From IMG/VR virus record IMGVR_UViG_3300030329_001756, positions 1 through 51,735 of that record: 51,735 nt of DNA. The stretch is one strand, 5' to 3'. Position 1 is the first letter of the stretch. Every line of letters starts with the position of its first letter. This DNA is from a virus. Taxonomy: Duplodnaviria > Caudoviricetes. The translations under genes were made by a program, and so were the position numbers. The notes under the pieces were generated by a model that was not told the DNA's origin, ran no database searches, and saw only the letters and a list, made by a program, of their open reading frames with translations. Of this stretch, positions 934 through 47,751 are shown one piece after another.

Positions 934-1141
934 GTAAAAAATGCACTAAAAAAGTACGATTTCAAGTAAGTCATTGATTATAAAAGAAAACAAAATTAAA
1001 AAAAAATAAAAAAATATGTTCTTCTAGTAGTGGAAAGTAGTGGGTTTTGGTGCTATTTAAAAAAATATGTCCCTAGTAATGGAAGGGGGTGGTATGGTGC
1101 TTTTAAAAAAAATAACATTACGTGCATTTTTTACTTGACAA
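927..1141. repeat. 20-bp perfect inverted repeat (927-946 / 1122-1141) enclosing two degenerate ~52-bp direct repeats
   Basis: ttgtcaagtaaaaaatgcac versus gtgcattttttacttgacaa; inner boxes aaaaatatgt..ctagta.tggaa.g..gtgg..tggtgct. Confidence 0.85.
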
Positions 1142-12500: not shown

Positions 12501-12577
12501 TGGCGGTCCCGGTAGGACTCGAACCTACAACCTATAGATTAGAAGTCTATTGCTCTATCCTTTTGAGCTACGGAACC
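12501..12577 (-). tRNA. tRNA-Arg(TCT)
   Basis: Cloverleaf GGTTCCG...anticodon loop CTTCTAA...GGTTCGAGTCC...CGGGACC-G-CCA. Confidence 0.92.
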
Positions 12578-17407: not shown

Positions 17408-17428
17408 GGCCAAAAAGGAGAAAAAAAA

Positions 17429-17620
17429 ATGAGTAAAATGAGCGATTTACACATAGACTATTCAGAACACATAAGATTATGTTCAAAAAATAATATTGAA
17501 AAAGAAGAAGCATGGGTACTATTAGACACAAATATAAAGAATGTTGTATATAAAGAAGATTTTCTAAAAGATTATTCTGAAGTTAAAGGTGAAAATAAAA
17601 TGATTAAAGAAGCTGAATAG
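17429..17620 (+). CDS. hypothetical protein
   Basis: SD AGGAG; 63 aa. Confidence 0.65.
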   Translation: MSKMSDLHIDYSEHIRLCSKNNIEKEEAWVLLDTNIKNVVYKEDFLKDYSEVKGENKMIKEAE

Positions 17621-18401: not shown

Positions 18402-18478
18402 GGACCCGTAGTTCAGTTGGTTAGAACGAACCGCTCATAACGGTTATGTCGTAGGTTCAAGTCCTACCGGGTCCACCA
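18402..18478 (+). tRNA. tRNA with CAT anticodon (Ile2-like or elongator Met)
   Basis: Cloverleaf, loop CTCATAA, encoded CCA; paired 1:72 so not initiator. Confidence 0.9.
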
Positions 18479-18480
18479 AA

Positions 18481-18567
18481 GCGGGCGTGGCGGAATTGGT
18501 AGACGCGGCAGACTTAAAATCTGTTTTCCGTTAGGAAGTGTGGGTTCAAGTCCCGCCGCCCGCACCA
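18481..18567 (+). tRNA. tRNA-Leu(TAA)
   Basis: Cloverleaf with long variable arm, loop CTTAAAA, encoded CCA. Confidence 0.92.
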
Positions 18568-24400: not shown

Positions 24401-26863
24401 AGGTATTAAAGCAAAATTACTTATCATTTTACCTGACATAGCACTAGCATTTATTTTTTCAGTTAAAACGCTTTTTAAACTTTGAATAACATTTAGTTGT
24501 AGCATGTGACCTAACAAGAAATCTACATTACCTAATTTAGATGGGACTCTTTCTGCAAGATCATCAAGTGCTTTAAATGAAGTTTTAATAGAGTTGTACA
24601 TTCGTTGTCTAGGACTTGCTTTTCCATCAACAGATTCGTCAGATAATTCGTCTATGTATTTAAGAAGATTTCTAAGATAATCTACATGTGCTGCTTTAAC
24701 ATTTTTATTAGCGTATTCTTCAGCATATCTCCATTTATTTACACTTCCATCTTTATTTAAAATGTTGTCGTTTTTTAACTGATCAGTAATAGCACCTCTT
24801 TCAGCGTTACTTTTAACATATCCTCCTGTTTCAGCTAACTCATCTCTTATTCTTAAAGCTTTTGCTGCATCACTAATTGCTCTTTGTTGCATTTGTTGTA
24901 AATCTACTTTTGTAAAGCCTTTACTGTATAACAATGCTGCTCTAGTTGAATTTTTTATAGCGTCTGAAGGAGATATTCCTTTTTCTTTTAATATTGTTAT
25001 CATTTCTTTAACAGGAGTTACATGAGCAACGAAATTTCCAACAGCACTTAATGTTTTACTGCTACCTAATTTTGCAGATAAACTTGCAAGATTTTTCCCT
25101 ATAAATTTTTGACCTATAGTAGGATACGCAAAAGCACCAGCCATACCAAATATTTCCGGCCAAAAGTTTTGAGATTCTTTAAATTGCTTTCTTTCTTTTT
25201 GTGTTATAGTACCATCTCTATTTATATCCATAATAGGTGTGAATAAATCCGAGATTGGTTCTCTTCCCCCTTGACCCCAATTTTCTATCATCATTGCAGT
25301 GTTTGCTGATGCCATTGCTGCAATACCCATATGGTAATCCTGCATTATAGATTTAGTAAATTTAGCTGCTTTTTTAGGATCGCCATGTAAAGCAAGCATC
25401 TCTCTATATTTTTGATGTATTAAATTGTCTGACATCATACTCATTTTTACATTTTCACTTTTAAATTCTTGCATTTTAAATACACGATTCCAGTAAGCTT
25501 CCTCTTCAGGAAGTTCTTGTTTGTACAATCTTGTATCAGTATAAATTCTAACAGAAGGATATTTTTGTCCTGTACCTTTAACTACGTCTTTTATAATGTT
25601 TGCTTTTTTAACATTTCGCATAAAGCTATTGGCGAGAGTTTGAGCAGACTTTGCTCCTCCAAATGAGGCAAACATTCCAGCAACATAAAGACCTCTATAA
25701 AAGTCAGTCATTTCTTCTTCAGGAACAGTTACAGCATCTTTTACAAACTTCCACATATCAGAAGCATATTTACGTTCTTTTTCTGTCATTCCATATCTAG
25801 CCATACCAAATACTTGCGCTATAAAATTATCAGGAAGCATAGCTCTGGACATTAAATTTATTTTGTCATTTCTTTCTACAAATCTATCCCATCCTCCAAA
25901 TCTTTTATCATCATAATACGCCAAATCTTTGATATCAGACCAAAGACTTATACCGTATCTTTTTTCATCTTCACTTATAGGAGGAGCCATTTTTATACTA
26001 AAATCTGAAGGATCAATTGCAAAAGTATAACCTAAAGCTACTGGTGCCCATTTATGAGAAAAATCTAATATATCGAAAGCAAGTTCACCTAATTCAACTA
26101 GAGGAGTACCTAATGATTTTGCACTGTTAAGTATAACTTTAGAAGTTTCAGGAACGGCGTTTTCTATAAAAATAGCAGTTTTACTTGCGGCGCTGCCGGG
26201 ATGTTTCTCGGCTTTTTCAACAGCTTTATCTACAGCTATTGCAAACGGATTAAGCTGTCCTCTACTGGGAGATATGAAATGGCTGGGTAAACCTTTTTCT
26301 GGAAACACTTCTGGATAAAGATGTCCTAAACCAACTTCTTTTAACGTAGTTTCTATAGTAGGTTTTTCATCTGAAGGTCTAACAAAAGGAAGGTAAGGAA
26401 ATTCTTCAAGTTTTTGAAGTTTTCTTTGTTCTTCTTCACGTATTAATTGTTCAGTTTTTCTTCTTTCTAATGGTGATGCAGAAAAAAGATTTTCCATCTG
26501 TACTGCAATAATATTTTCACCTCTTTCTGGCGGTTCATCTGTTCCAGTGATATAGTGTCCTGAAAATTCTTCACCTACTCTAGGTTCTATTGTTAAATCT
26601 GATATTAATTGTTCTCCTTCTTCTATTTGTTTAAAAGCAGGAGCTAAATACTTTTCTGATTTAGATTCAGGAGTAGATTTATCTAAATAAGATTCAAGAC
26701 TTTTACGGTTAACGTATATTTCGGAGATATCGTTATCCATTTTTCTCTTTGCCCTCTCAATTTGAGCTTGCAAAGAATTATAATTGTCTGTCTCAAAATA
26801 AGCATAATCTAAATCATTTTGATTATTTTCTTTATTGCCTATTTCTTGTTCAAAATCCACCAT
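21476..26863 (-). CDS. very large putative internal virion (ejection) protein
   Basis: 1795 aa, helical, located after the tail genes. Confidence 0.6.
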   Translation of the reverse strand: MVDFEQEIGNKENNQNDLDYAYFETDNYNSLQAQIERAKRKMDNDISEIYVNRKSLESYLDKSTPESKSEKYLAPAFKQIEEGEQLISDLTIEPRVGEEFSGHYITGTDEPPERGENIIAVQMENLFSASPLERRKTEQLIREEEQRKLQKLEEFPYLPFVRPSDEKPTIETTLKEVGLGHLYPEVFPEKGLPSHFISPSRGQLNPFAIAVDKAVEKAEKHPGSAASKTAIFIENAVPETSKVILNSAKSLGTPLVELGELAFDILDFSHKWAPVALGYTFAIDPSDFSIKMAPPISEDEKRYGISLWSDIKDLAYYDDKRFGGWDRFVERNDKINLMSRAMLPDNFIAQVFGMARYGMTEKERKYASDMWKFVKDAVTVPEEEMTDFYRGLYVAGMFASFGGAKSAQTLANSFMRNVKKANIIKDVVKGTGQKYPSVRIYTDTRLYKQELPEEEAYWNRVFKMQEFKSENVKMSMMSDNLIHQKYREMLALHGDPKKAAKFTKSIMQDYHMGIAAMASANTAMMIENWGQGGREPISDLFTPIMDINRDGTITQKERKQFKESQNFWPEIFGMAGAFAYPTIGQKFIGKNLASLSAKLGSSKTLSAVGNFVAHVTPVKEMITILKEKGISPSDAIKNSTRAALLYSKGFTKVDLQQMQQRAISDAAKALRIRDELAETGGYVKSNAERGAITDQLKNDNILNKDGSVNKWRYAEEYANKNVKAAHVDYLRNLLKYIDELSDESVDGKASPRQRMYNSIKTSFKALDDLAERVPSKLGNVDFLLGHMLQLNVIQSLKSVLTEKINASAMSGKMISNFALIPDIQKYARQEADLIKGLSEIALTHGKSVDEVDRQFYDSLKNITKAANKKSIETNRQIEQIIQREGLNQTDILTVTPEERKIIDKLLRVVVHEPTTSSDRVSVTDLRENIRNSFFGEDGLYPKLVTSSNEAYTKVKTEANKLDLNIDISEAIDILSDPKLPSGVSQAFASILGKTPVSLTVLKKLKQTTSLNTIEEITDVVGDDLKEQIRWLNDHLLRSVDNEEAIKIAAKLEVGSTNKQLQSIKNELIEKIQEKNAAPFSVSMPDFVELKRKLSEISRKDLESGKTSNQDYYNLSPVIKSLSDSLEEYPELSSSFKEANENWMKTILPFRDNDSPFYKIFINRNPDKGRISSENLLLEIIKHPNQEATQRAYNQMTKDMSDDEKQDLARLFVYSMGNAINKKLLNDRQINNFMSSFHNTNESGFSIFKGTDVEEYANALKSKGKSSLVANKENEQAVIKASSAIRQAIDELKTDRDLSVPTRLINEMLGTGKQGTKTDIDPTTFTQTMLGLGDRSTTLPLSPVTKEEFLDKFRSNIRKNYGYNDPDIDRFINETPRLRAIEQNIIDAFKLTDDGIERFNPILFMKNHLKETLPTRAYNDFIESLKVLTTDEILKIGFPEVNVGELSFYPKTREELRRMFLKRGNIPKYRINEVLEGVENNNSEVMDQLKELKYSNEDLFKSTVNFDRTVDPASMSRFLKEKRPVLKEIFDEEHLETLDALIAPMAMIKNLQESGKLAMSSIQSEWTVPQALGKANSIVRGFLSPRYAITEFGIMHFRQSQFQIMRELFNDKIFAETFKDIFEAGNKGTGVPQDSLAYWSAKMIAIQSSVQARLENHAEENGIPRSALYEKITTYTVPRLIENFDDVIWPFSAIEEYKKQEVYGAPPLNTNRDVIDFMNQWLPFTKLQNEKALKDSEEMLKNLQQYGQQFGSESELNISPDIENIFSRRKILEQEYGKSFSKQNQNKIPGLLDIKI

Positions 26864-26868
26864 TATAT

Positions 26869-29800
26869 TTAATTCCTTTGTCCTGCTTTAAAATTTAAAA
26901 TTTGCTGCATATTACTTTTATACAATTTGTTTTGAAATTCATTAAAATAATCTGTAAAAAATTCCCTATCCTCTTGATCAGCTATTCTACCTATTTTTTT
27001 ATTTAGTTTAGAATCTATATCGTTAAAATCTTCCCAATTAACTGAGAAAATTTTATTTTTATCTAAAGAATATTGTTGAAAGAGGCTGCGAGGAAGACCT
27101 CTTATAAGATTATTTATACTTTTATCGGTTTTATTACGATAAACACCATTGAAAAGTTTTACTAAACGCTCATATTTTTCAGGAGTATACCCGTCTGTAC
27201 CGAATAACTCATTTTCTCTGTAAGCTATATTTTTTGTTGCATAATTTATAGCGTGCATAGCTTTCAATACAGTTCCAGATAAACTATATTTATATAACAT
27301 ATACTCTTTAATTTGTTGTTCCGTTAAAGGCTTTTCGTCTGAACTTACTAAACTATTAAAATCTTGAGTATTAAAAGTTATGTTTTGATCTGGGTCTAAC
27401 GGGCTTTGAAAACTTACTATTTTAGCTGTACTATCAAAGTTTGCTTTTGTAGGAATTTGAAGATTTAGATTTTGGTTTTCTATTTCTTCACGCAAAGTCT
27501 TTCCAAAACTATACATAGCATCTCTAACATTAACGTGTAATCCTGTTACTGGACTTAAAGTTTGTGCAGCTATTGATTCACTTTTTGCAAAATGAAGAGA
27601 ATGATACAGTTCTCTTAAATTAGCTCTTACAACACGTTCATTTGGCGACCATAAAGCTCTCATAATAATCTTAAAATCTTGGTCAGAAATTGTTCTACTT
27701 CCTGAACTTCCTCCTTGAAACACACCAGCTAACGTATATGCTAATTTTACTTTTTGAAGCTGTATTTGTGAGTATATTTCTAATTGCCTATCATTCATTA
27801 AATCCTTGTTTGTTTCTTTTTCTATATTATCTTTAGCAGCTTTCATATATGTTTGTAAATATCCTTCCATGTTATCTCTATTTTCTTTAGTAAATTCTAT
27901 ACCTCCAGTATTAAGTATTTTAGATGTTGCTTTATCATCGTCAAGAAAACGAAGTATTTCTTTTGCTTCACCAAAAGCAACATTAAGAGTATTTGCAAAA
28001 CCAGATGTTAATGAAGTCATAGATTTAAAGGTTTGACCTCCTTCTATATAATCTTCATTATACATTACATTATCCATTAATTTATCATTAGACATAAAAA
28101 GAAATATTAAATCTTGTACATTTTTAATACCCTTATCGGCATTTTGTACTGCGGATTGAATGTCTTTATAAGCTTTGCTTTTTACATCAAGAGCATTATA
28201 TCCTTGACGTATTTTACCGGCAACACCATCTTTTTCAGAATGATGATAAACAAAATTACCGGTAACTAAACCTACCGCAAGTTGATTTAATTGTTCTTCA
28301 TTTAATTTATGTTTCTTAGCGTATTTAATTAAATACCTTGCAATATTTTTTTGATCATCTTTTGTAGATCGTATTTCTTCCTGTCCTTCGTAATTATTTG
28401 GGTCTATATTTGATCCCCAATCTTGCATACGCATACGTGTTATAGCGTCTCTTACTTCTTTCGGACTATTCATGCTAAGGTGTCTAACTAAATTTCTTTG
28501 ATTTTTAACACCAAAACGAATAGCCCATTCAGTAGGCCCTACTTGAGGATTAAATACAGGATTATCTTTTCCTTCCTGATCAAAATTAGTAGGAGGAGTG
28601 TTTTTTGCTATTTCTGCTTCTACTTCTGGTTGACTAACTCCTGATTCTAAAGACCCTGAATTATTGGCTATCTTCAAATTTTCTACTTTTTCAGAACCAT
28701 CAGGAAAATCTTTACTTAAATCTACTTTTCCATCTTGTAATAAAGGAGTAACTATGTTTTTTAAATTTTGAAATTGATTAAGAATACGGCGACCATCCAA
28801 AGTATAGCCGTCACTCATTCCTCCAGCAAGTTCAATTTGTTTTTCATTAAAGTGCATATAAGTTTTAACTATATCATTTTTTAAACGAGGGCTTGAATTA
28901 AATGTTTTAATTAATCTTTGATAACTATCTTCTGAAATTCTTTTAGAATCTCCTAATGATCCATCTAACATAGTCATAAATTTAACCATTAACTCTTCGT
29001 CATTTTTTGTAATTTGTGATGAATGTTTACTAAATATAGACCTATCAAAAAATTGTTGAACTTTACCGTCTTTCATTATAGGTAAAACGAAAAGAGACGA
29101 TAAAAGTTCATTATCGGTATTTACAGCGTGCTGACGAAATGCAGGATAAACAGCAGTAAGAGGAATTGTTTTACCTTCGTTTAGAGCTTTTTGATCTCTT
29201 TCAGCTATCTTTTGTTTTCTACGTAAATTATTTACCTTTCTTATATTTGAAAAAGTAAATTGTTTACTTACTTTTCCTGCTCTTAACCAAAAAGGATCAT
29301 TCTCAGGAATCATAGCTATCTTACCAGTTGACATGTTTTCTATAGCATCTTTTACATCAGGATGTCTTAGGTTTGAAGTTTTATATTCACTTTCAATACG
29401 TTTATGTTGTGCTTCTGCTTCTCTAGCACCAACAAGTTTTTTTATTCTTTCGTAATCATAACCTAAGTTATCAAGTGCATCTTGAAATTTTTTATTTTCA
29501 AAATAAGGTGTATCTCCCGGTCTGTAATTAGTTTCATAAAGAGCTTCAGGACCAACTTCTTGATCGTCTAATTCTCCAGTAACTTGAGATTCTTTTTCTC
29601 TAATAGTGTAGGAAGGTTCAGGTAATGAAGTTCGACCTGCTACTACATCGTCAATGTAATCACGATGAGCTTGTCTTTGTTCTTTTCTTTTTTGAATACT
29701 TTTTTCTAAAAAATATTTTTTTCGTGCAAATTCTGTTTGTTTTTTATTTTCTTCATATTGAAGTTTAAAACGCCGTTCCGCTGAAGCAGCTTGAGCTTTT

Positions 29801-29895
29801 TTAAAAGCTAACTCTTGCTCTCTAGCCTCTTGTCTTTCAAGTCTATCTAAACCTTGCTTAACACCTTCAGCAAGTCCTGCCATAAATCCAGCCAT
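26869..29895 (-). CDS. putative internal virion protein
   Basis: 1008 aa; MAGFMAGLAEG start followed by coiled coil. Confidence 0.6.
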   Translation of the reverse strand: MAGFMAGLAEGVKQGLDRLERQEAREQELAFKKAQAASAERRFKLQYEENKKQTEFARKKYFLEKSIQKRKEQRQAHRDYIDDVVAGRTSLPEPSYTIREKESQVTGELDDQEVGPEALYETNYRPGDTPYFENKKFQDALDNLGYDYERIKKLVGAREAEAQHKRIESEYKTSNLRHPDVKDAIENMSTGKIAMIPENDPFWLRAGKVSKQFTFSNIRKVNNLRRKQKIAERDQKALNEGKTIPLTAVYPAFRQHAVNTDNELLSSLFVLPIMKDGKVQQFFDRSIFSKHSSQITKNDEELMVKFMTMLDGSLGDSKRISEDSYQRLIKTFNSSPRLKNDIVKTYMHFNEKQIELAGGMSDGYTLDGRRILNQFQNLKNIVTPLLQDGKVDLSKDFPDGSEKVENLKIANNSGSLESGVSQPEVEAEIAKNTPPTNFDQEGKDNPVFNPQVGPTEWAIRFGVKNQRNLVRHLSMNSPKEVRDAITRMRMQDWGSNIDPNNYEGQEEIRSTKDDQKNIARYLIKYAKKHKLNEEQLNQLAVGLVTGNFVYHHSEKDGVAGKIRQGYNALDVKSKAYKDIQSAVQNADKGIKNVQDLIFLFMSNDKLMDNVMYNEDYIEGGQTFKSMTSLTSGFANTLNVAFGEAKEILRFLDDDKATSKILNTGGIEFTKENRDNMEGYLQTYMKAAKDNIEKETNKDLMNDRQLEIYSQIQLQKVKLAYTLAGVFQGGSSGSRTISDQDFKIIMRALWSPNERVVRANLRELYHSLHFAKSESIAAQTLSPVTGLHVNVRDAMYSFGKTLREEIENQNLNLQIPTKANFDSTAKIVSFQSPLDPDQNITFNTQDFNSLVSSDEKPLTEQQIKEYMLYKYSLSGTVLKAMHAINYATKNIAYRENELFGTDGYTPEKYERLVKLFNGVYRNKTDKSINNLIRGLPRSLFQQYSLDKNKIFSVNWEDFNDIDSKLNKKIGRIADQEDREFFTDYFNEFQNKLYKSNMQQILNFKAGQRN

Positions 29896-30432
29896 TTATA
29901 TTACTCCTTTTTCGGGTAAAGGCATAAAACCTTCAACTGCGTCTTCTTCTTTTATGTTTTTTAAAGAATCTTGTATTTTTCTATCTATTGCATCTGTCTC
30001 AGGATCAGTATACATATTTTTAGGTGCTAGTTTTTCTTGAATAGAAATCATTTCTTCATCATCAGGTTCTTCAAGTTCTAACATTTCATTAAAGATTTTA
30101 ATATTAGATACTTTAGGACTGACTATTTCAAATATTTTTAAAGCTACAGGAACATCTAACAGCATAGCTAAATCAGGATTAAAAGCTCCTTCATTAACTC
30201 CTTGTTTTGTTAAAATTTGAGCAATAGATTGTATAGAAACTCCAGAACTAACTGCTTTAACAAGATTTCTTTTTACTCTTTTTTTGTTTAAACCTTCAGC
30301 TATAGTATTAAACGCTTCTTTTAAATCTACAGTAGCTGGAGGTTTATCCATTGGTAATGAACCCGGTTCAAGCGCCCAACTTGATCCCGGTATAGATTCT
30401 GTCAGTAAATCAGTATCAAATTTTTCAATCAT
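29896..30432 (-). CDS. conserved virion-module protein
   Basis: IPGSSWALEPG..P.DKPP and FNPDLAMLL, typical of marine podoviruses. Confidence 0.6.
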   Translation of the reverse strand: MIEKFDTDLLTESIPGSSWALEPGSLPMDKPPATVDLKEAFNTIAEGLNKKRVKRNLVKAVSSGVSIQSIAQILTKQGVNEGAFNPDLAMLLDVPVALKIFEIVSPKVSNIKIFNEMLELEEPDDEEMISIQEKLAPKNMYTDPETDAIDRKIQDSLKNIKEEDAVEGFMPLPEKGVI

Positions 30433-30449
30433 ATCGCCACTTTCCTTTT

Positions 30450-30938
30450 TTATGTATATTCACTTAAAGCTTGAAAGAATTTTAAAGGGTCTTCTTGTTC
30501 TTTTTTAAATCTATCTTCAAAATAACGATGATCAAAATTTTCATAATCTTCAGCAGCTAAGTCACCAGAACCTTCATCAATGGTTTCGTTAAATTCTTTA
30601 AAGCTTTCTATATAATCATCTTGAATAGCCTGCATAACTGCTGGACTTACTTGACCTTTAATACTTTTAGCAACTTGACTCCAATTAGTTTCTCCTAAAA
30701 TATCTTGAAGCTCTTCGTACACATCACCTTCAGCATCAACTTCTTCTGCTAAAGTTTCTTGCGGTCTTTCAATAAAAGGTGTTCCTGCTTCTTCTGTGAG
30801 AGCATCGCGCCGTCGTCCTGATCTATCTATAGCACGATCAATAGCGGTAAATTCTCTTCCTTGACCGGATTCTTGACCTTTTTTGTTCATAGAACTCATA
30901 ATCGCGCTTGCTGCAATAGTCGCTATGGTTGCCCACAT
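30450..30938 (-). CDS. putative small ejection/pilot protein
   Basis: MWATIATIAASAIMSS hydrophobic N-terminus. Confidence 0.55.
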   Translation of the reverse strand: MWATIATIAASAIMSSMNKKGQESGQGREFTAIDRAIDRSGRRRDALTEEAGTPFIERPQETLAEEVDAEGDVYEELQDILGETNWSQVAKSIKGQVSPAVMQAIQDDYIESFKEFNETIDEGSGDLAAEDYENFDHRYFEDRFKKEQEDPLKFFQALSEYT

Positions 30939-30976
30939 AATGTATTCCTTCTATTAGTTAAGTTAATTAACATTAC

Positions 30977-33313
30977 CTAATCCTTACCTAGATTTTTCAA
31001 CACACTACCTAAAACTGTAGTAGCAATGCTTCCTAATAATGATCCTGTAGCTCTCTTATCAGCAGCACTTAATTGAATGTCTACCAATTCTTTTTCAAAC
31101 TGTTGATTAAGAACAGTTAAAGCTGTTTGTTGCGCTCTAGCTTTTGCATTCTCTGTAGCTGTAAAAGCTTGTGCAGCATCATCTCTAAATTTTTGCCACA
31201 TTTCTTCTTGAGCCTTAACAGTTATGCCTAATAAGGTAGCTGCATTTTGTTGATTAGCTTTATTTTTCTCTGCTGTATTAGCAGTATTAATAGTTCTTCT
31301 CCACGTAGCATTAGACTGCTCAATTTGTAAAGCTAAATTAGCGTTAAATTTTTCTCTTGAATCTCTCATTTTAGAGTTATATTGAGCTACAGCTAAATCT
31401 TGATTTGAATTAAACTGTTGATTAGCAGTATCTCTAGCTTTATTTTCTAAGTCTACTGAAGTAGATAGTTGATCATAAAATTGATTCACTTGATTTTCAG
31501 AAGTAGCGTTAAATTGCTTTCTAGCGTTTTCAGCAGCTTGATCAGTGAATAAAGATTGCACTTGACTTTGATGATTTAATGTGTTCATAGCCTGTTCGTT
31601 TTCAACATTTGTTAGATTCATCTGTAAAAACGATTGAGCATTTTGTTGTGCAGCTTTCATTCTGTTGTCAAGATTTTGACGATCCATAGCAGCGATAGTA
31701 GCAGCGTTAGCTAAAGCAGTTTGTTGTTCGTTGTTAAGATTTTGAATTTGAAGCGTTGCAGCTTTTTGAGCAACATCAGCAGCAATAGGTATAGCTGATT
31801 CCATAAGACCTTGTGCTACTGCCGCAGCAGCCATACTGGAAGCACCTAAACCTCTTTGGTTCATAAGTTCGTTTACTTTACGAACTGTAGGTGACGCCCA
31901 CGGTGGGAATTTGCCTGTTTCAATACCTTCAGTTAACTTTTCAATCTGATAAGCTGTAGAAGCTTCTTGAGCTAGTTCTTGTGTTTTAGCTTCAGCAAGA
32001 CTGCCTCTTTCAAACATTTCTGTTCTTGTACGTTCGTCTACGACCTGATTAGGATCAATGACATCCTTAGAAGTAATATTTCCTTGTACAGCTTCAGCAG
32101 TAGGAAGGCTTGAATACGTTCTTTCTATATTATCAACAACAGAAGCCTCAGACGTATCAGCTACAGCATCAGTATACGTAGTGGCAGTAGGATCACCAAT
32201 ATCTACTGTTGATGGTTTTCTTGATCCGTCATTAGGATCAACTGGTTTTCGCGTCAAAAGTCCTTTATTACCGACATCAACATCAGGATAAACTGGTGGG
32301 TACTTAATCGGTTGAAATCTCTTACCTGTTGATAGTGCGCCGGGACCCCTTAAAAGTTCATTAGTTTGAACTTTTTGATCTTCAGGCGTATACAGCATCT
32401 CAATACCGCTGGTATCAATTCCTGTAACATTGCCATCTTCATCTACAATAGGTTTACCAGCTTTACCTGTTTGTGTAATAATATTAGGAATACCAACAGC
32501 TTGAGTACCCTTAATATCAATAATTGGTTTATTAATTACATTAGGGTCATTAGTTTTTGGCTGAATAACTCTAGGGTCTTTTGGTTCAGTATCTACTTCA
32601 TTTATATTAGATGTGTCTGACACGTTTTGATTCCCTGTATTAGTTGGTGGTTTATATTTTGTAACAGATTCTTTTGGTCCTGAAATACCTTTATAGGCAG
32701 GATTTTTTACTTGTCGTGTTTTTTTGACGGTAGTATGTTTACGCCCTTCTTTTTTACCGTGTCTTTGATAATGCAGATGAGGACGTGATCCAAAGTACCA
32801 ATCATTAGCTATGTCTGGATTTTGTCTAAGGTACTCAGCCGCATCAAATTCTCCGGTATCGTATTCTTCTTCAATAAACTCTGGTTCAGACGGTTCTACT
32901 GGCTTTTGAGGTTCAGGTTGCGGTTCAGGTTCAGTAGGATATTCGTATTGACCTGAGTACACTTGAGATACAGAACTTTTAGGATCAATAAGAGTGGGTT
33001 GAGTTTTAGATTCAGAAGGTTTACCGTCTTGACTTGAATTTAAGTTATACTGCTCAATTTGTGAAACTAAATCAGTGTTAATTTTTCCTGATCCTTGTTC
33101 CATTTGTTTTGTTAGATTAGCATTAAAATCTGATCTACGTTTATCCCAAGACTGCCAAGCAGGATTAGATACTTGTTCTGTTCTTTGTTTAGTGACCATT
33201 TCTTGATCACCGCCCGCCGTTTGTTCCTGTTCTTGATATGAAACTTGCTTATTAATAGTTTTAGGAGGTTCTGGCTCCGTAAACATAGTAGTTCCAAAAA
33301 GAGGTGTACTCAT
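30977..33313 (-). CDS. putative internal virion protein
   Basis: PPWAS..RGLGASSMAAAA..MESAIPIA; Asn/Gln/Ala-rich helical C-half. Confidence 0.65.
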   Translation of the reverse strand: MSTPLFGTTMFTEPEPPKTINKQVSYQEQEQTAGGDQEMVTKQRTEQVSNPAWQSWDKRRSDFNANLTKQMEQGSGKINTDLVSQIEQYNLNSSQDGKPSESKTQPTLIDPKSSVSQVYSGQYEYPTEPEPQPEPQKPVEPSEPEFIEEEYDTGEFDAAEYLRQNPDIANDWYFGSRPHLHYQRHGKKEGRKHTTVKKTRQVKNPAYKGISGPKESVTKYKPPTNTGNQNVSDTSNINEVDTEPKDPRVIQPKTNDPNVINKPIIDIKGTQAVGIPNIITQTGKAGKPIVDEDGNVTGIDTSGIEMLYTPEDQKVQTNELLRGPGALSTGKRFQPIKYPPVYPDVDVGNKGLLTRKPVDPNDGSRKPSTVDIGDPTATTYTDAVADTSEASVVDNIERTYSSLPTAEAVQGNITSKDVIDPNQVVDERTRTEMFERGSLAEAKTQELAQEASTAYQIEKLTEGIETGKFPPWASPTVRKVNELMNQRGLGASSMAAAAVAQGLMESAIPIAADVAQKAATLQIQNLNNEQQTALANAATIAAMDRQNLDNRMKAAQQNAQSFLQMNLTNVENEQAMNTLNHQSQVQSLFTDQAAENARKQFNATSENQVNQFYDQLSTSVDLENKARDTANQQFNSNQDLAVAQYNSKMRDSREKFNANLALQIEQSNATWRRTINTANTAEKNKANQQNAATLLGITVKAQEEMWQKFRDDAAQAFTATENAKARAQQTALTVLNQQFEKELVDIQLSAADKRATGSLLGSIATTVLGSVLKNLGKD

Positions 33314-33481: not shown

Positions 33482-33501
33482 ACTTCCTCTTTTTTTTTAT
33501 T

Positions 33502-41924: not shown

Positions 41925-42006
41925 TCTGGGGCCGACACGTAGCCGGGTAGCCGTTCAGAGGAGTAGTGTTAATTAGCGGGGCCAATATTGTATCGGGTAG
42001 CCGCTC
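41925..42006 (-). promoter_or_regulatory. twin hairpins in the scaffold leader
   Basis: Two copies of CGGCTACCCG-(stem-loop)-GGCCCC. Confidence 0.6.
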
Positions 42007-42055
42007 CGTTTAAAGACTTTCTTCAGTCTTATCTATGTTATGTGTCGGTTGTGCG

Positions 42056-43429
42056 CTATTTATTTTTTCTTGCAGCAGCCCAACGCATAGTGTTTATCTT
42101 TTTTAGTCCGTTATCAGTAAATCCTATATCAACATGTATTCCAGTACCATGTTCAAAGTCTTTAGTGATTAAGTAATCTTTGTTTTCTTCAAGACCGTAA
42201 TTATTTTTAAGTTTTTTTATTAGGTCTTTCGTATATTTTTTATAATCTTTTACTTTGTTTGTTTTATATGTAAAATCAAGTTTAGTTCCTCTTAGATGTC
42301 TACTGGGTGGTTTCCCTGCTTTTTTTCGATCATCATAATAAGAACCATGATGAAATTTATCATTTTGTGCAGTAACTCTACCAAATTTATTAGGTAAACT
42401 TTTTTGAATTTCACCAGCCATCCAAGTAACATCAGGATCGTTATATCTTCCCAGATCAATAGAATCTGTACCTAAATAATCTTTATCCCACTTTTTTTGT
42501 CCACCTTTAAATGCTTGACCACCTAACCGAGATAATTCAGAATAGTATTTTACGCCTAAATCTCTTAGAGTTTTATCTCCAAATTTTTCTGTTTTAACTC
42601 TTAAATCTAAAACTGATTCTGGAAGTATGTCCATAATATCAACATTAAGTTCTTTCTCTTCAAATTCACCTGTTTTCCAAGAACCCGGATTGTGTTCAAC
42701 AGAGACTAACTGTTTTTCTATGTCAGTAGGTAGTTCCACAAATCCTCCTTCATCAAATTTTAACTTCAACCTTGCATAACCTTCTTTATTTCCTCCAGAA
42801 GTAGAAGCTCCTATAGATGCTTCTCCGCGATTATTAAGAAATTTACGTTTTAATTCAGCACGATACGTATTTTTAGGTTTTCCGTGTGGTGGCATTACTT
42901 TTTCAGCACCTACGCTACCAAAATAATCTCCAAAATTTTTACCAACATTAAAATCATACTTTTTTTGACCTGATGGATTTTCTTTTTCAAAACCTAAATC
43001 TAAAGTACCGTCTTCTAAAAATTTTAAACCTAATCTGCCTTTTAAAGAACTTCCCTCTCTTTTAGATTTAAACCAAGCATTAGTAAAATTTTCATTTCCT
43101 TTAACATATTCTATTAACAATTTTTCAACATCATTTTCACGATCAGAAGGTACATTATATTCTGCCATTAAACTATTTACAGCACGTTTTACAGTTTCTT
43201 CATAATCATTAACTTTAAATGTTTCTTTTCCAGACGATCTTCCTGCTTGTCCTTGAATACTTCCTTTTCCTACAGGAATTTTAATTCCTACACTAACATC
43301 ATATTTATTTTTCTTTGTACTAAAAGGTCTAGATTCAGATGGTGCTTTATGTTTTGATCCGTATCTATAATTAAATCTTGGAATAAAAAGAGGTTTATCT
43401 TGAGCTACTAAATCACCATCTTTATAGGC
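42056..43429 (-). CDS. -1 frame extension: beta-barrel-like region plus peptidase M15-like domain
   Basis: Frame is open for 87 codons upstream of ATG 43168 with no start codon; SRHLRGTKLD...IHVD Zn motif. Confidence 0.7.
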   Translation of the reverse strand, partial: AYKDGDLVAQDKPLFIPRFNYRYGSKHKAPSESRPFSTKKNKYDVSVGIKIPVGKGSIQGQAGRSSGKETFKVNDYEETVKRAVNSLMAEYNVPSDRENDVEKLLIEYVKGNENFTNAWFKSKREGSSLKGRLGLKFLEDGTLDLGFEKENPSGQKKYDFNVGKNFGDYFGSVGAEKVMPPHGKPKNTYRAELKRKFLNNRGEASIGASTSGGNKEGYARLKLKFDEGGFVELPTDIEKQLVSVEHNPGSWKTGEFEEKELNVDIMDILPESVLDLRVKTEKFGDKTLRDLGVKYYSELSRLGGQAFKGGQKKWDKDYLGTDSIDLGRYNDPDVTWMAGEIQKSLPNKFGRVTAQNDKFHHGSYYDDRKKAGKPPSRHLRGTKLDFTYKTNKVKDYKKYTKDLIKKLKNNYGLEENKDYLITKDFEHGTGIHVDIGFTDNGLKKINTMRWAAARKNK

Positions 43430-44121
43430 TTTTTTTTTACAAGACCTCCACCTCTCATATCCAAAGTCTGTTTTTCCATAGTCTTTGTAGGAGGTTGTAA
43501 AGGATTGTTAAAACCGGGATTGTCCACATTACCAACACCTTGCATTGGAACGTATCCACCGCCTTTCATCATAGGCATAGCTGGTGCTTGTTGAGGCATA
43601 GCTAGTGCTTCTTCAGGCAATTCTTCTTGCGGAGGAATTTCAGGCATTGCAGCACCTAAACCTTCAACATCCTCGCTTGGTCTTTCCATGAACCCGTCAT
43701 TTCTTCCTGCTTCAAGTTGCGCTCTAAATTCTAATCCTTTTTCACGTAAAGCATTCAAAACGTCCATTCCTATGTACGGAATCAGTTCTTGAGGAACACG
43801 ATATTCATAATTAGAGATTTGAATAGGAACTTCATCTTGTGGATCAATTTCTTCTACTTGTATATCATCCTGTTCAGCAGCAGAAGCAGCTTCAAGAATC
43901 ATATTGTTTATTTCTTCAAATCCTACAAACAGAATAGTCTCGTAAGGAAGGATAAAATCACCTTCTTTAGCAGTAGCAGAAACATCGTCTTCCATAGATG
44001 CTACACCCTCATCAGGTAAAGCACCTTCAGCTTCATTCACCATTCCCGGTTCTAAAGCATCCCCTTCTAATAAGGGCGCTGGCGGTGCATTCATCATTTC
44101 TGGTCTGTCCATTAGTGCCAT
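43408..44121 (-). CDS. acidic head-module protein ending at a slippery site
   Basis: Repeated DDVSATAKEGDFILP / DEVPIQISNYEYRVP units; GTA AAA AAA AAG near the end. Confidence 0.75.
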   Translation of the reverse strand: MALMDRPEMMNAPPAPLLEGDALEPGMVNEAEGALPDEGVASMEDDVSATAKEGDFILPYETILFVGFEEINNMILEAASAAEQDDIQVEEIDPQDEVPIQISNYEYRVPQELIPYIGMDVLNALREKGLEFRAQLEAGRNDGFMERPSEDVEGLGAAMPEIPPQEELPEEALAMPQQAPAMPMMKGGGYVPMQGVGNVDNPGFNNPLQPPTKTMEKQTLDMRGGGLVKKKPIKMVI

Positions 44122-44169: not shown

Positions 44170-45651
44170 TTATGCTCCAACATCTTCACCCGCTGGATCA
44201 TCCGCTTCGTCCCCGCCGCCGCCGCCGCCGGGGCCTCCGCTGTCTTCGTCGTCTGCTCCTACGTCTTCTGCTGTTCCAGCCGAGCCAACATCAGGACCAG
44301 TGTCTTCTTCGCTTGGTTCATCTTGATCAGGATCACCATCGTCGGTTGTAGAGGTATCTTCTTCCTGTTGTTGTACAACTTGTACTATTTGAGGAAGAAC
44401 AGGTTCTTCAGGATCAATAGTGCCAGCCCAAACATCTCCATACGGATTAGCTAAAGTTTTTAAATCATAATAATAACTTGCGCCACCAGTAAACAAATTC
44501 ATTCTATAAAATGATGCTGGGTCCATTCCTACTGGTACATCAAAAGTTCCTGATCCTGTCTGACCTACAAGCTTTCTATGTTCGTTTCTTAAATCTTGAA
44601 TACTGTTAATCATTCTGTTATTGATAACAAGCTTACCACTAATAGGATCAATTCTCATAGGAACATCGAAATGTTGAAAAAGACGTACAGCTTGATCCAT
44701 CAAATTACCGGGATCAATAGCTGAACTAGGGTCGTATTGTAAGCCAAACTCAGGTGTAAAATCTTCAAATTCGTCAATTTGAGCTTGTCTTTCTTCGTAT
44801 ATTCTCATAGCTTCTTCAAATTCAGCTAACTCTTGTTCATATCCCTCTCTAATTGAATCAGGCGTTTGTGACCACGTTGTCCACGCTGGATTATCATAAT
44901 TTATGTCTTGATATCCAATCTTCTCGACCATTCCCCAATCGCCCTCACCATATTCTTCATAGTCTTCATAGGTATAAGGTTCTCTTTTTGTAATGTATCT
45001 AGCAGGCTCTGGACCTCTAGCAAAATCTTCAGGAACATCAGGAGCAATTGGTTTAATATTCTTTAAAGAAACCCAACCTTCAGGAGCAATGAATCCTTCG
45101 TGAGGCGCTCTTACTACTTGCCTAGTAGTAGGATTAAAATAAATTTCTTCTTGTTCTCCTACCGTAACGCCTTGATCAGGAGCAGTAAACCCAGCGTCAT
45201 CCCACGTAACAGTTCTATAGTTAGCTCCTTGTTCTGGAGTTTTTAATGAAAATCCTGTTCCTCCTTTTTCAGTTCCAAGAAACTCTTGACCAAGCAAATC
45301 AAGAGATTTTTGCCAATCTAGTTTTTCATAGTCAAAATAAGGGTTAATACCGGAAACAGACGGTAAAGTTGGAAAAAGTGAATCAGTATACTTTTCCTTT
45401 CGTGGTTCTGAATAAGGTTTGTACATTGCATCTTTTTGTTCTTGAGTAGGTGCAGTAACAAACGATTTTTGTTTTAACGGTCCAGTAACATATTTTTTAG
45501 TAAGAGGAAGACTAGGATCAACGTAGCCGGGTGTAGCAGACATATCAGGAGCGACGTTCATAACATCACCCTTTTTCCTTTTCATAAAAGGTCTATTTTT
45601 TACTTTACTGTATGTATCAAAATACGAAGGATATATGTTAGGGTCTGCCAT
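44170..45651 (-). CDS. hypothetical virion-module protein
   Basis: 493 aa; acidic Gly-rich tail. Confidence 0.6.
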   Translation of the reverse strand: MADPNIYPSYFDTYSKVKNRPFMKRKKGDVMNVAPDMSATPGYVDPSLPLTKKYVTGPLKQKSFVTAPTQEQKDAMYKPYSEPRKEKYTDSLFPTLPSVSGINPYFDYEKLDWQKSLDLLGQEFLGTEKGGTGFSLKTPEQGANYRTVTWDDAGFTAPDQGVTVGEQEEIYFNPTTRQVVRAPHEGFIAPEGWVSLKNIKPIAPDVPEDFARGPEPARYITKREPYTYEDYEEYGEGDWGMVEKIGYQDINYDNPAWTTWSQTPDSIREGYEQELAEFEEAMRIYEERQAQIDEFEDFTPEFGLQYDPSSAIDPGNLMDQAVRLFQHFDVPMRIDPISGKLVINNRMINSIQDLRNEHRKLVGQTGSGTFDVPVGMDPASFYRMNLFTGGASYYYDLKTLANPYGDVWAGTIDPEEPVLPQIVQVVQQQEEDTSTTDDGDPDQDEPSEEDTGPDVGSAGTAEDVGADDEDSGGPGGGGGGDEADDPAGEDVGA

Positions 45652-45653
45652 AG

Positions 45654-45884
45654 TTACTTATCACCTTTCCATTTAGAATCTGCTTCAACCGACACCTTGA
45701 GGCTGATCAGTGTTTCCAGCAAAGCCAGCTTCCCCTGCAATCGGCGCATCTCCAATTCCGATTCCGCCACCACCAGTTGCCGCTGCATCATTTGGGCCAA
45801 CTGTTTGAGGTACTCCTCCAGCGGCTCCCATAGCTGGGGGTTGCTGACCAGCGGGAGAAGGTTCTTGGCCTGTTGGTTGTGCAT
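45654..45884 (-). CDS. small conserved protein downstream of portal
   Basis: W..LEEYL...EMRRLQGK..LLETL. Confidence 0.65.
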   Translation of the reverse strand: MHNQQAKNLLPLVSNPQLWEPLEEYLKQLAQMMQRQLVVAESELEMRRLQGKLALLETLISLKVSVEADSKWKGDK

Positions 45885-47751
45885 TTATACCTCTCAAAAT
45901 ATCTGCGAAAATAGCTGCGTCATTTACGTCGTTAACAAGCAAATCAGGATCAATATCTTGACTGATAGCAAGTTCTTTTATAAGGTTTGGAATCTTGATG
46001 AACGGAGCAAGCATTGGGTTTGAAATAGTCTGAAGAAGCGTAGTAAGACGCTGACTACGTACTTCCTTTTGAACTACTGCGCTTGTTCCTCTTGGTTTAA
46101 TTTCAAGGTCACCGTGTATTTCAGGCATGTAAGTATTGAACTGCATGTTCCATTGAAAGTACGATTCTCCAAGAGGCTTGAGAAGAAAATCATCAATGTT
46201 CTTGATAACAGTCTTGATGCTTAATCCTGCGCTGGACATAAGCATACTTAAACCAGCAGCAGTTCTTCCTGTTCCTGTAACACCTGTCTGCCCGTGCATG
46301 ATACTTGGAATACCAGTTTGTTCGTCAGCAAGTTGCCTTGCCTTGTCGTACATCTGAATATTTTCTCCAGCAGTATTAGGAAACTTGATGCCGTTAATAG
46401 CTGTTCCTGTTACACCAGATTGCCTTCTAAAAACTTTACCGGGAAACACATCATAAGATTGTCCCGGTACAAGTTGAGCTTCGTCAATGTCAAAAACAAG
46501 ATTACCAGCTAAAGCAAGATTGTCAATAGCCATTCTTACGTGACCGTTCATCAACAGTTGACTATCTTCCATGTTTTCCGCAACACCTACACCAAAAATT
46601 TGATAAGGATTAAGTTCAAACGGAAACGAGTAGTACGGAAGCCTAGTAGGAAGAAATGGATTAGAAACTATTCTAAGAATTTCTTCACCACAAACCCAAA
46701 CATTTACCTGAACAGATCGTCCCGAATCCTCCGATACTTCGAGGCCAGCTTCTCGTGCAAGTGCCGTATCCATAATACCCCAGTATTCCAATACCTCATA
46801 ACGGTTTTTCTCATTAGTAGTATCCTTTTCATTATTGTACAAAGTACTTTCAAAATAGCGTTCTTGATAGTTTGGACCTTCCTCAAGAACTCGCTTAATA
46901 GCATCTTCATCGAATAAAGGACGGTTAAGAAGATCACGTAATTGCTCCCTGTTAAATCTGTGTCTTTCGATAACATATTCACAATCATTGATAGAGGTAG
47001 CAGAAGGATCAGGATAAAAATCCCAACAGCTAACGGAGCTTAAACGAGGAACAGTCTTTTCGTAAGGCTGGTATTGTTTCTCGTCTTCAGGACTACCTTC
47101 TTCTGGAATTGCCCAGTTGTGTACTGTCTTGCTATAGTTAAACGGTCCTTTTACAACACCAGTACCTAATAAGGAACACTCAAACAACGAGTGCCTCATA
47201 ATAGTTACTGCGTTAGTGTCTAAAAGTTGATCTTGAATGCACTTCTCCATATAACGTGCGGATTCTCTTGATGGAGATATTTGAGGTTGATTAGGAACTT
47301 TAGCTACACCCTCTTCTAAATTAGCTCCTTCGTACTTTTCACTTAAACCACCAAGCGGAGTAGCTTGTGTAGCACCCGGCAAAAGCTCTCTGCCGTCACC
47401 GGGAAAACCGTAAGGGTCTTCAGTTTCAGGTTGTTGAGGTTGTTGTGAAAGATGAGCAAACTCAGCAATACCTTCAGGAACAGGTGTAGATTCCACAGAG
47501 ATAGGAAATTTGTTCTGTGAAAATAAAATATCTACAATCTGTCCGTAAGCAGCAAGTACTTTTGTCTTTGTAATCTTGATAAAGACTTTACTACGCTCGT
47601 TATCACGGTATTGTGTTGTAGAGTCGTAGATACCACGATAGTTTTTATAGGCTTTAAGCCAGCGTTCTTCATCAGGTCTACGCCCTGTCTCAGCGTCCAT
47701 AAACCTTGATTTTACTAAGCCTACCAGCCTATATTCTTCGTATTCATCCAT
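45685..47751 (-). CDS. portal protein
   Basis: EERWLKAYKNYRG, FIKITKTKVLAAY, WDFYPDP, GVGVAENMED, RTAAGLSMLM. Confidence 0.88.
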   Translation of the reverse strand: MDEYEEYRLVGLVKSRFMDAETGRRPDEERWLKAYKNYRGIYDSTTQYRDNERSKVFIKITKTKVLAAYGQIVDILFSQNKFPISVESTPVPEGIAEFAHLSQQPQQPETEDPYGFPGDGRELLPGATQATPLGGLSEKYEGANLEEGVAKVPNQPQISPSRESARYMEKCIQDQLLDTNAVTIMRHSLFECSLLGTGVVKGPFNYSKTVHNWAIPEEGSPEDEKQYQPYEKTVPRLSSVSCWDFYPDPSATSINDCEYVIERHRFNREQLRDLLNRPLFDEDAIKRVLEEGPNYQERYFESTLYNNEKDTTNEKNRYEVLEYWGIMDTALAREAGLEVSEDSGRSVQVNVWVCGEEILRIVSNPFLPTRLPYYSFPFELNPYQIFGVGVAENMEDSQLLMNGHVRMAIDNLALAGNLVFDIDEAQLVPGQSYDVFPGKVFRRQSGVTGTAINGIKFPNTAGENIQMYDKARQLADEQTGIPSIMHGQTGVTGTGRTAAGLSMLMSSAGLSIKTVIKNIDDFLLKPLGESYFQWNMQFNTYMPEIHGDLEIKPRGTSAVVQKEVRSQRLTTLLQTISNPMLAPFIKIPNLIKELAISQDIDPDLLVNDVNDAAIFADILRGINAQPTGQEPSPAGQQPPAMGAAGGVPQTVGPNDAAATGGGGIGIGDAPIAGEAGFAGNTDQPQGVG

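Follow-up and report, generated by a model that had tools for sequence, protein, structure and literature searches.

A conserved nine-adenine run at a probable recoding site between a head-region protein and exchangeable payloads in an HMO-2011-type marine podophage

Results

Two long frames meet at a run of nine adenines

The window analysed here (the whole stretch of DNA, 51,735 bp) takes in an entire IMG/VR virus record with an estimated completeness of 97% and a GC content of 37.4%. Its portal protein shares 57% identity with the portal of Pelagibacter phage HTVC033P and 49% with the one of Puniceispirillum phage HMO-2011, and on this comparison we assign the window phage to the uncultured HMO-2011-type marine podophages. 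We examined the junction between a 237-aa open reading frame (ORF) in the head region, here called the N-module, and the frame of 457 codons that follows it in the -1 frame, here called the extension or payload (Table 1). An initial annotation had proposed that a programmed -1 frameshift at a run of nine A's (A9) joins the two.

The frame anatomy described there proved exact on direct reading of the sequence, from the end of the 237-aa ORF and the 87 start-less codons to the upstream TAA and the GGAGG 9 nt off. The 3' end of the ORF reads GGT GGA GGT CTT GTA AAA AAA AAG CCT, with the stop six codons on; from the run, the 0 frame continues as GTA AAA AAA AAG CCT ATA AAG ATG GTG ATT TAG and stops at 43410..43408. 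The -1 frame spans 483 codons from stop to stop (42056..43507), and offers no ATG, GTG or TTG after the run until codon 88, an ATG at 43168. There is no Shine-Dalgarno (SD)-like sequence in the 20 nt before this ATG (AACGTGCTGTAAATAGTTTA), unlike the neighbouring genes, which have AAGGAG-type sites upstream, confirming that the extension lacks a start of its own. Over the 87-codon stretch the other two frames hold 6 and 18 stops. A promoter scan between the frames gave no excess (9 sites against 7.9 expected), and no terminator was found between the 237-aa frame and the extension. The predicted products are a protein of 237 aa (25.9 kDa, pI 4.06) and one of 231 + 457 = 688 aa.

Table 1. Features of the junction and of the surrounding head region in the window
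Feature	Coordinates	Strand	Remarks
Portal	47751..45685	-	Pfam SU10_portal, E 2.6e-30
493-aa ORF	44170..45651	-	between portal and 237-aa ORF
237-aa ORF (N-module)	44121..43408	-	after 493-aa ORF in head region
TAA closing the -1 frame	43510..43508	-	26 codons upstream of GCC at 43429
GGAGG, Shine-Dalgarno-like	43449..43445	-	6 nt before A9, 9 nt before A_AAA_AAG
A9 run	43438..43430	-	T9 at 43430 on + strand; holds 0-frame A_AAA_AAA and A_AAA_AAG
Heptamer A_AAA_AAG, 0 frame	43435..43429	-	
-1 frame after run	43429..42056	-	457 codons; TAG at 42058..42056
Start-less stretch of extension	43169..43429	-	first 87 codons, without ATG/GTG/TTG
Extension middle part (NENFTNAW...GKNFGD...RLKLKF)	42758..43168	-	common to relatives with other catalytic tails
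Extension C-terminal domain + TAG	42056..42757	-	candidate LAS/M15-like domain; conserved NDxxH, SxHxxGxKxD, HGTGxHxD
Conserved intergenic block	41969..42033	-	short hairpin AAGACTGAAGAAAGTCTT, then GGAGCGGCTACCCGAT...GGCCCCGCTAATTA; before scaffold-like gene
Scaffold-like ORF		-	downstream of -1 frame ending 42056; phrog_13678, E 4.4e-59
Major capsid protein		-	after scaffold-like ORF; phrog_267, E 1.3e-58

Nine adenines are the prevailing state of the junction

A9 was found in contigs of three sequencing runs, with word depths of 24-139. Two of these runs, X1 (word depth 139) and X2 (109), are a possible source of the window, and their contigs are identical to it, A9 included. The third, X3, is an independent 2023 seawater run of another study, whose 1010-nt contig over 43042..44030 differs from the window by 19 substitutions (2% divergence) and one 21-nt insertion at 43583, with A9 intact and no indel at the run. 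A9 is the prevailing DNA state at the junction.

The initial annotation had allowed that reads might show ten A's (A10). The true tract would then be A10, forming one continuous 688-codon ORF, and A9 would be a homopolymer under-call. Homopolymers are prone to error, and three related contigs do carry A10. However, one of the three runs with A9 is clearly independent of the window, A9 is present in 12 contigs of different projects and is the length indicated by 32 of the 53 protein clusters (drawn from ENA, JGI, Logan and Tara), and L001 and L002, two relatives that differ in tract length, have no other coding homopolymer indels. Since the independent run, the contig comparison and the protein census agree on A9, we consider an artefact very unlikely, and the least probable of the alternatives weighed here.

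The run is conserved in relatives that carry an extension

We gathered relatives of the N-module regardless of their downstream content, using a protein search, a DNA pattern ending before the run, and a profile search. With records of the same contig under two names merged, the tally comprised 15 extension-bearing and 13 extension-less contigs, in two clades whose N-modules are 44-47% identical. An uninterrupted A-run is present in all 15 contigs with a start-less extension, as A9 in 12 (the window, L003, L029, L030, L033, L001, L043, L044, L045, L050, L053 and L056) and as A10, which puts the fusion in frame, in three (L002, 341 aa; L048/L049, 559 aa). None of the 13 extension-less contigs (L004, L005, L035, L031, L046, L047, L059, L051, L052, L054, L055, L057 and L058) has a run of at least nine A's. 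The longest among them is A8 in L054 (3501-4256, +; GTA AAA AAA AGA AAA GGA TAA), and in L057 and L058 the lysines are spelled AAG AAA AAG, interrupting the run. The tract remnants in L054 and in L005 and L035 may have been left behind when a payload was lost, or may be sites at which one could be gained.

Both the slip site and the open frame, on whose presence in homologues the initial annotation had staked its proposal, are thus kept in relatives. Within clade 1, the synonymous divergence (dS) is 0.2-0.8 and the Lys codons nonetheless read AAA AAA AA-. An unselected homopolymer would be lost at such dS and at 44-47% identity. The 0 frame closes 1-7 codons past the site in all A9 loci, and the start-less frame is still open in the diverged relatives L030 and L033.

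A census of N-module proteins, comprising 53 clusters at 90% identity, pointed the same way. Five clusters end in VKKKPIKMVI and five in VKKNPIKMV[MI], which is the 0-frame reading of the first codons of a window-type extension, and 22 end in VKKK[NS], a tail paired with A9 in 6/6 loci for which DNA was available. Out-of-frame tails of the A9 type therefore make up 32/53 clusters and in-frame fusions 3/53 (334, 560 and 783 aa). The other 18 carry different short tails (QKKR, ARKK, TRKK, KKKNN etc.), some as in extension-less loci; judged from protein only, they were left unclassed. Fusions of the N-module and a payload are meaningful proteins, as the A10 forms, which are in frame (341, 559 and 783 aa), demonstrate.

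These data also bear on the possibility of two separate genes, in which the downstream frame starts at ATG 43168 (370 aa) and the 87 codons before it are untranslated leftovers. Public gene callers do start all relatives at internal ATGs (370, 325, 307, 312 and 649 aa), and the ratio of non-synonymous to synonymous divergence (dN/dS) of the 87 codons is not below 1. Yet ATG 43168 has no SD where its neighbours do, and the stretch before it is free of the stops that abound in the other frames. Moreover, the open frame reaches exactly to the A-run in every payload type while the position of the first start codon varies (codon 88 in the window, 90 in L033, 15 in L029 and 39 in L001), and the A10 relatives are continuous through the junction. 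We therefore regard two independent genes as highly improbable.

A tblastn search with the 237-aa protein and the extension against 50,697 GenBank phage records gave no match, so that no cultured relative carries the module at E<=1e-3, and an IMG/VR search with the extension yielded 0 relatives among 20 pattern matches. Our first DNA pattern also retrieved 16 'GGGFIP' loci (L007 etc.), which encode a different protein of another phage type with only the DMRGGG motif in common and were kept out of all tallies. In these loci (L007:4261-5568 (-) and 15 similar ones), which come from another type of marine podophage, the protein has 435 aa and ends ...DMRGGGFIPIGKKERADDVPARLSKNEFVMTADAVRAAGGG; it has DMRGGG and DDVPAxLSxxEFV motifs in common with the N-module and HMO-2011 ORF49, and its motif-bearing region matches the tape-measure PHROG phrog_5448 (E 2.5e-6).

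The route of the frame switch

Under recoding, the 237-aa gene and the 457-codon frame would be one gene, from which most transcripts or ribosomes yield the 237-aa protein and a minority, shifted by -1, the 688-aa fusion. The shift could arise from RNA polymerase adding one A on A9, from the ribosome slipping on A_AAA_AAG, or from both, and the two routes would give an identical 688-aa protein. At A10 the fusion would be the majority product, with slippage supplying the short form. The comparative evidence supports the earlier expectation of a single gene with 237- and 688-aa products, and we consider it probable that recoding takes place at the conserved A9 tract, through a polymerase and/or ribosomal slip that yields a minority 688-aa fusion. 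That both proteins are produced, and in what ratio, we infer from the sequence.

Runs of nine A or T are known to make bacterial RNA polymerase slip, and such A9/T9 slippage yields two products in both Thermus dnaX and Shigella spa13 (PMC5009743). An uninterrupted homopolymer of that length (about 9 A/T) lies in the coding region of the window, and A9 or A10 in that of all 15 extension-bearing contigs. The initial annotation had instead called the signal dnaX-type and mentioned transcriptional slippage as a possibility. In a purely ribosomal shift of this kind, tandem Lys tRNAs would slip on A_AAA_AAG, GGAGG would pair with 16S rRNA, and transcripts would be faithful A9 copies. The window does have a 0-frame heptamer of the form X_XXY_YYZ and a GGAGG 9 nt before it, an arrangement also present in all seven clade-1 contigs, and the nearby 0-frame stops at every A9 locus suit such a shift. 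Moreover, no heptamer is more prone to shifting in E. coli than A_AAA_AAG, with A_AAA_AAC and A_AAA_AAA far below it (PMC5009743).

However, these elements vary among the relatives. GGAGG is present in 7/7 extension-bearing contigs of clade 1, where it encodes part of an invariant Gly-Gly-Gly also found in extension-less relatives, but in only 1/8 contigs of clade 2. The run is followed by G in 12 contigs and by C in three (L033, L001 and L002: A_AAA_AAC or A_AAA_AAA), which leaves these three with heptamers that are much less shifty in E. coli. No 3' structure beat shuffled sequences in six loci (40, 60 and 90 nt; 100 dinucleotide shuffles; z +1.13 to -1.65). Further, a heptamer of six or seven A's would be enough for ribosomes, yet nine are retained in all cases, the invariant element at all extension-bearing A9 sites being GTA AAA AAA AA. 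The comparisons lend the dnaX-type label no specific support. Because the uninterrupted nine-A run is conserved, and not the last base of the heptamer, the SD or a 3' structure, we lean towards polymerase slippage as the main route, with some contribution from ribosomal shifting, whereas a purely ribosomal shift appears unlikely on these comparisons.

The switch might alternatively lie in the DNA. In this case the tract would be hypermutable, A9 genomes would make the short protein only and A10 genomes the fusion only, with replication slippage switching between them. Both lengths are natural, occurring in 12 and 3 contigs, respectively, and L001 (A9) and L002 (A10) are 99.7% identical over 5.5 kb, with three further indels, all intergenic; an on/off switch in the DNA could thus account for some of what is observed. 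Silent payloads should decay, yet frames of 102-668 codons, of at least 6 payload types, stand open behind A9 in 12 contigs. Among the protein clusters A9-type tails stand against in-frame forms at 32:3, and the window payload type has no in-frame cluster among the matches listed (51 near, 2 longer). As some polymerase slippage is expected on A9 regardless, phase variation would be more a companion of recoding than an alternative to it, and we think it doubtful as the whole explanation, more so than the ribosomal route.

Several observations weigh against recoding at A9, our preferred reading. A9 and A10 occur in strains as close as L001 and L002. A/T runs of at least nine are not rare genome-wide (4 found against 5.8 expected under a first-order Markov model at 37.4% GC); this one is beyond chance in that it lies precisely where two long frames meet and is conserved among relatives. 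L005 (4703-4726, +) and L035 have A7 (CAA AAA AAG) and hence an in-frame A_AAA_AAG despite having no extension, so the heptamer alone is not diagnostic. In the start-less 87 codons, the NG86 dN/dS is 2.8 between the window and L033 (5 synonymous, 46 non-synonymous) and 2.6 between the window and L030 (1 and 10), compared with 0.84 in the middle domain and 0.23-0.43 in the N-module. Purifying selection on this stretch was not detected by dN/dS, with small counts, and because the ratio is not below 1 its coding status is argued from the open frame and not from substitutions. The A9 evidence from the runs consists of contigs, which hide minority tract lengths, and the RNA run X19 gave contigs on either side and none across 43259..43774. 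A search of the record for a single-subunit RNA polymerase (PF00940) had no match, and since control genomes were equally silent it is uninformative. Finally, it is by gene position between portal and scaffold, and by this only, that the N-module would be placed in the capsid.

The N-module resembles an anchor with a tether

The N-module is acidic, and its residues 147-237 are Pro/Met/Gln-rich, ending GGGLVKKK. Its structural model (predicted local distance difference test, pLDDT, 57.6) is confident only at residues 50-145, in two strand-helix-helix units that form a predicted tandem repeat (strand plus helices at residues 56-84 and 106-141), and the low-confidence segments 1-47 and 147-237 are probably disordered. 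The model suggests a small folded repeat acting as an anchor, followed by a long flexible tether. The N-module can also work alone, as it does in the extension-less relatives.

No Pfam, PHROG, PDB-sequence (profile) or fold match was found for the N-module. Fold candidates were dropped, the best reaching a VIA Z of 3.5 and, in BFVD, an E of 0.012 to an unnamed protein, and the Atlas gave unnamed viral clusters only, plus a chance-level crAss cargo row at 0.80. The repeat units carry the motifs DDVxAxxxEGDFILPYE and DEVPIQISNYEYRVP, which match the N-terminus of HMO-2011 ORF49, encoded at the same gene position; the ORF49 motif matches two places in the N-module (E 6e-5 and 6e-4, single comparison). 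We rejected ORF49, as well as HTVC033P gp75/gp76, as full homologues, as only a 33-39-residue motif of ORF49 matches.

A motif [DEKRS]-G-G-[FLYE]-[VI] recurs at apparent module borders, as KGGGYVP, RGGGLVKKK and DEGGFVELP in the window, DDGGEV in L029, and EKGGFV, SGGFV and DEGGFV in longer in-frame relatives (L060-L070). It might be a hinge or processing site.

Payloads occupy a slot with fixed edges

In clade 1 the edges of the payload slot are fixed, the A-run forming the left one and the conserved intergenic block the right one. This block lies 15 nt past GTA in loci without a payload and 317, 1199, 1409 or 2034 nt past it in loci with one. It is near-identical in 10/10 clade-1 loci checked, and the same pattern was not found in 8 clade-2 loci. 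A promoter-like TTTAAA-16-TACAAT lies inside the block at 42014..41987 (-). Payload GC is 8-12 points below that of the N-module in 8/8 loci. From the common flank in all clade-1 loci and the lower GC, the payload appears to be a cassette, and the slot behind the A-run would accept exchangeable, AT-richer cassettes of this kind.

Behind this one N-module family we found at least seven payload types without evident mutual similarity, although pairwise BLASTP was run on two pairs only, neither significant. They comprise the window type (also in L030 and L033) and payloads of 668 aa (L003/L029), 102 aa (L001/L002), 121 aa (L043), 168 aa (L044/L045/L056), 187 aa (L050/L053) and ~330 aa (L048/L049), besides that of P0086 (a 783-aa protein). 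A relationship between the L001 and L043 payloads was rejected by BLASTP, and homology of the window middle domain to the 168-aa clade-2 payload was dropped (BLASTP E 0.07 over 15 residues). Pfam and PHROGs gave nothing for the payloads of L001, L043, L053, L048, P0086 and P0087, and the L044 payload had only a sub-threshold match to OMP_b-brl (E 0.0012).

The window payload may end in a wall-cutting domain

The C-terminal domain of the window extension has 31 matches, in proteins of 78-3895 aa that include much larger ones (848-3895 aa), and one of the matches also bears a Phage_base_V spike domain. In a 16-sequence alignment, SxHxxGxKxD (H154, D161) and HGTGxH (H208) are invariant or at least 90% conserved. 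The zinc ligands of LAS/M15 peptidases lie in H-x(3-6)-D plus a later His, and both elements are present in this domain. Its model (pLDDT 80.4; predicted template-modelling score, pTM, 0.78) was compared by a VIA-align wide search, in which LAS proteins made up 10 of the 13 top rows: the hedgehog N-domain (Z 5.4/5.3/5.2), VldE (5.4), Ply500 (5.0), RB49 peptidase (4.8), LysB4 (4.5), DD-peptidase (4.4), VanX (4.4) and T5 peptidase (4.3). An Atlas feature search gave Peptidase_M15_2/3 as a lead only, with a score of 0.84.

Other searches counted against this assignment. All Z scores are below 8, Foldseek returned no match at E<=0.001 for the C-terminal model, and Pfam had no match either to the 234-aa C-terminal part (E<=1) or to the extension as a whole (E<=0.01). 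PHROGs and a PDB sequence search gave nothing for the extension, and the middle part has no family match. We tentatively suggest, on a best Z of 5.4, that the window payload could end in an LAS/M15-like zinc peptidase domain.

Relatives with the window-type middle part have different tails, with a weak match to Phage_lysozyme in L033/P0004 (E 0.032) and to SLT in P0003 (E 0.096). The clade-2 payload is followed by a separate gene that matches Peptidase_M15_3 (E 4.5e-24). This gene, of 128 aa, has its own ATG overlapping the preceding stop (TAATG; e.g. L053:2139-2525 (+)) and lies between the N-module/payload and the scaffold gene in L051, L052, L043, L044, L045, L053 and L056. Given the LAS-like domain, the lysozyme- and SLT-like tails and the clade-2 Peptidase_M15_3 gene, wall cutting is, with moderate confidence, the best-supported function of the window payload, which would cut the host wall at infection.

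Neighbouring genes and other features of the window

Pfam and PHROGs gave nothing for the 493-aa neighbour of the N-module. Its counterpart in an extension-less relative (L005:2136-3974 (+)) has 612 codons, with a C-terminal part starting ...GGGPCWVAGTQILMKDGSCKNIENLKIGD that we take to resemble the start of a Hint/intein-type domain; from this relative, the gene upstream of the N-module may likewise bear variable C-terminal modules. The scaffold-like ORF is listed from GTG 41938 (-), and an ATG at ~41905 with AAAAAGGAGATAATAAAA before it is the likelier start.

Elsewhere in the window, three very large ORFs (1795, 1008 and 778 aa; 21476..33313 (-)) have no PHROG match at E<=1e-5, and a 498-aa ORF at 36967..38463 matches phrog_5107, labelled amidase (lysis), over its full length (E 5.2e-78). 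The window has three tRNA genes (Arg-TCT, Met-CAT and Leu-TAA, at 12501..12577 and 18402..18567), with no tRNA-Lys among them. Other A9/T9 runs are at 33490..33498 (-), 998..1006 (+) and 17421..17429 (+); the one at 33490 is intergenic, immediately before a AGAGGAAG ribosome-binding site and an ATG.

Discussion

HMO-2011-type phages are among the most abundant marine phage types, and their structural genes are almost all unannotated. If recoding at the A-run is right, standard gene calling mis-annotates this locus everywhere and misses a family of fusion proteins; every database entry that we examined starts the payload at an internal ATG. The locus also shows phage cargo modules exchanged at a fixed slot, and three kinds of wall-degrading domain may act at entry, not lysis. 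For the recoding field it offers comparative evidence that tract length, rather than a heptamer with stimulators, is the selected feature. It further provides a natural series for homopolymer-set protein ratios, in which anchor and A-run stay constant over at least seven payloads and near-identical strains carry A9 and A10 alleles.

A broader and more speculative possibility, which we hold to be less likely than not, is that the A9/A10 tract acts as a dial with two levels, set on a cargo dock that is general to abundant marine podophages. The N-module would be a capsid anchor plus tether, and the cassettes in the slot would be delivered with the DNA. Polymerase slippage would set the minority share per burst, and replication slippage would flip the majority form per lineage. 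If this were true, populations would hedge how many particles carry wall-cutting or other host-directed cargo, and the locus would represent, in a lytic phage and linked to recoding, a counterpart to polymorphic-toxin systems.

In the literature, supplements aside, we found no printed report of such recoding for HMO-2011-type phages. Among known systems, the A9/T9 slippage sites of Thermus thermophilus dnaX and Shigella spa13, spa33 and mxiA are alike in having a coding A9 and nearby stops in the unshifted frame, and in Shigella spa13 a C-terminal extension comes from a minority of transcripts, as proposed here (PMC5009743). These sites differ from the present one, which lies in the head-gene region of a lytic marine phage, spans two clades, carries exchangeable payloads and would slip by inference from sequence. 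In Thermus dnaX the long form is in frame, whereas here it needs the shift. E. coli dnaX has the same 0-frame heptamer, and the window shares an SD-like GGAGG 9 nt upstream. The E. coli signal has a 3' hairpin, however, and none was found here, where the SD is not conserved in clade 2 and the Z base varies; the E. coli shift shortens its product, whereas the one proposed here would lengthen it three-fold.

Several phage genes likewise make a minority long form with a common N-terminus, including T7/T3 10A/10B and those of Lactobacillus A2, Listeria A118/A500/PSA and lambda (G/GT) (PMC5009743). Those cases concern the major capsid, tail or chaperone proteins, whose extensions are mostly Ig-like or fixed and are produced by heptamers with 3' stimulators. 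The N-module, in contrast, is a non-capsid protein without a fold match, its payloads are polymorphic and in part putatively enzymatic, and the site is a homopolymer.

Also similar in architecture are the MuF (SPP1 gp7 / Mu gpF) toxins of temperate phages, which likewise have a conserved head-module N-domain encoded near the portal and highly variable C-termini; SPP1 gp7 is a portal-binding protein of which each capsid holds 1-2 copies (PMC5576092). No Pfam family at E<=0.01, MuF (PF04233/PF06152) included, was found in the 237-aa or 493-aa protein. The MuF gene is directly downstream of the portal gene, whereas here the 493-aa ORF intervenes, and MuF fusions are made without a change of frame, whereas the join here depends on a -1 shift. 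MuF payloads are toxins; the payloads here are predicted wall hydrolases or have no match, and are not known toxins. No signs of a temperate lifestyle were seen in the parts of the phage examined.

Podophages also carry virion-associated peptidoglycan hydrolases, e.g. the transglycosylase domain of T7 gp16. The window payload would be alike in having a wall-degrading domain fused to a structural or ejected protein, and would not be a holin-dependent endolysin. Unlike in those proteins, its predicted catalytic domain is swapped among relatives (LAS-, lysozyme- or SLT-like) and is a separate gene in clade 2, and its virion location is deduced from gene order. By analogy, the locus most nearly resembles the Thermus dnaX and Shigella spa A9 sites in mechanism, the long forms of phage structural proteins in outcome, and the MuF systems in logic.

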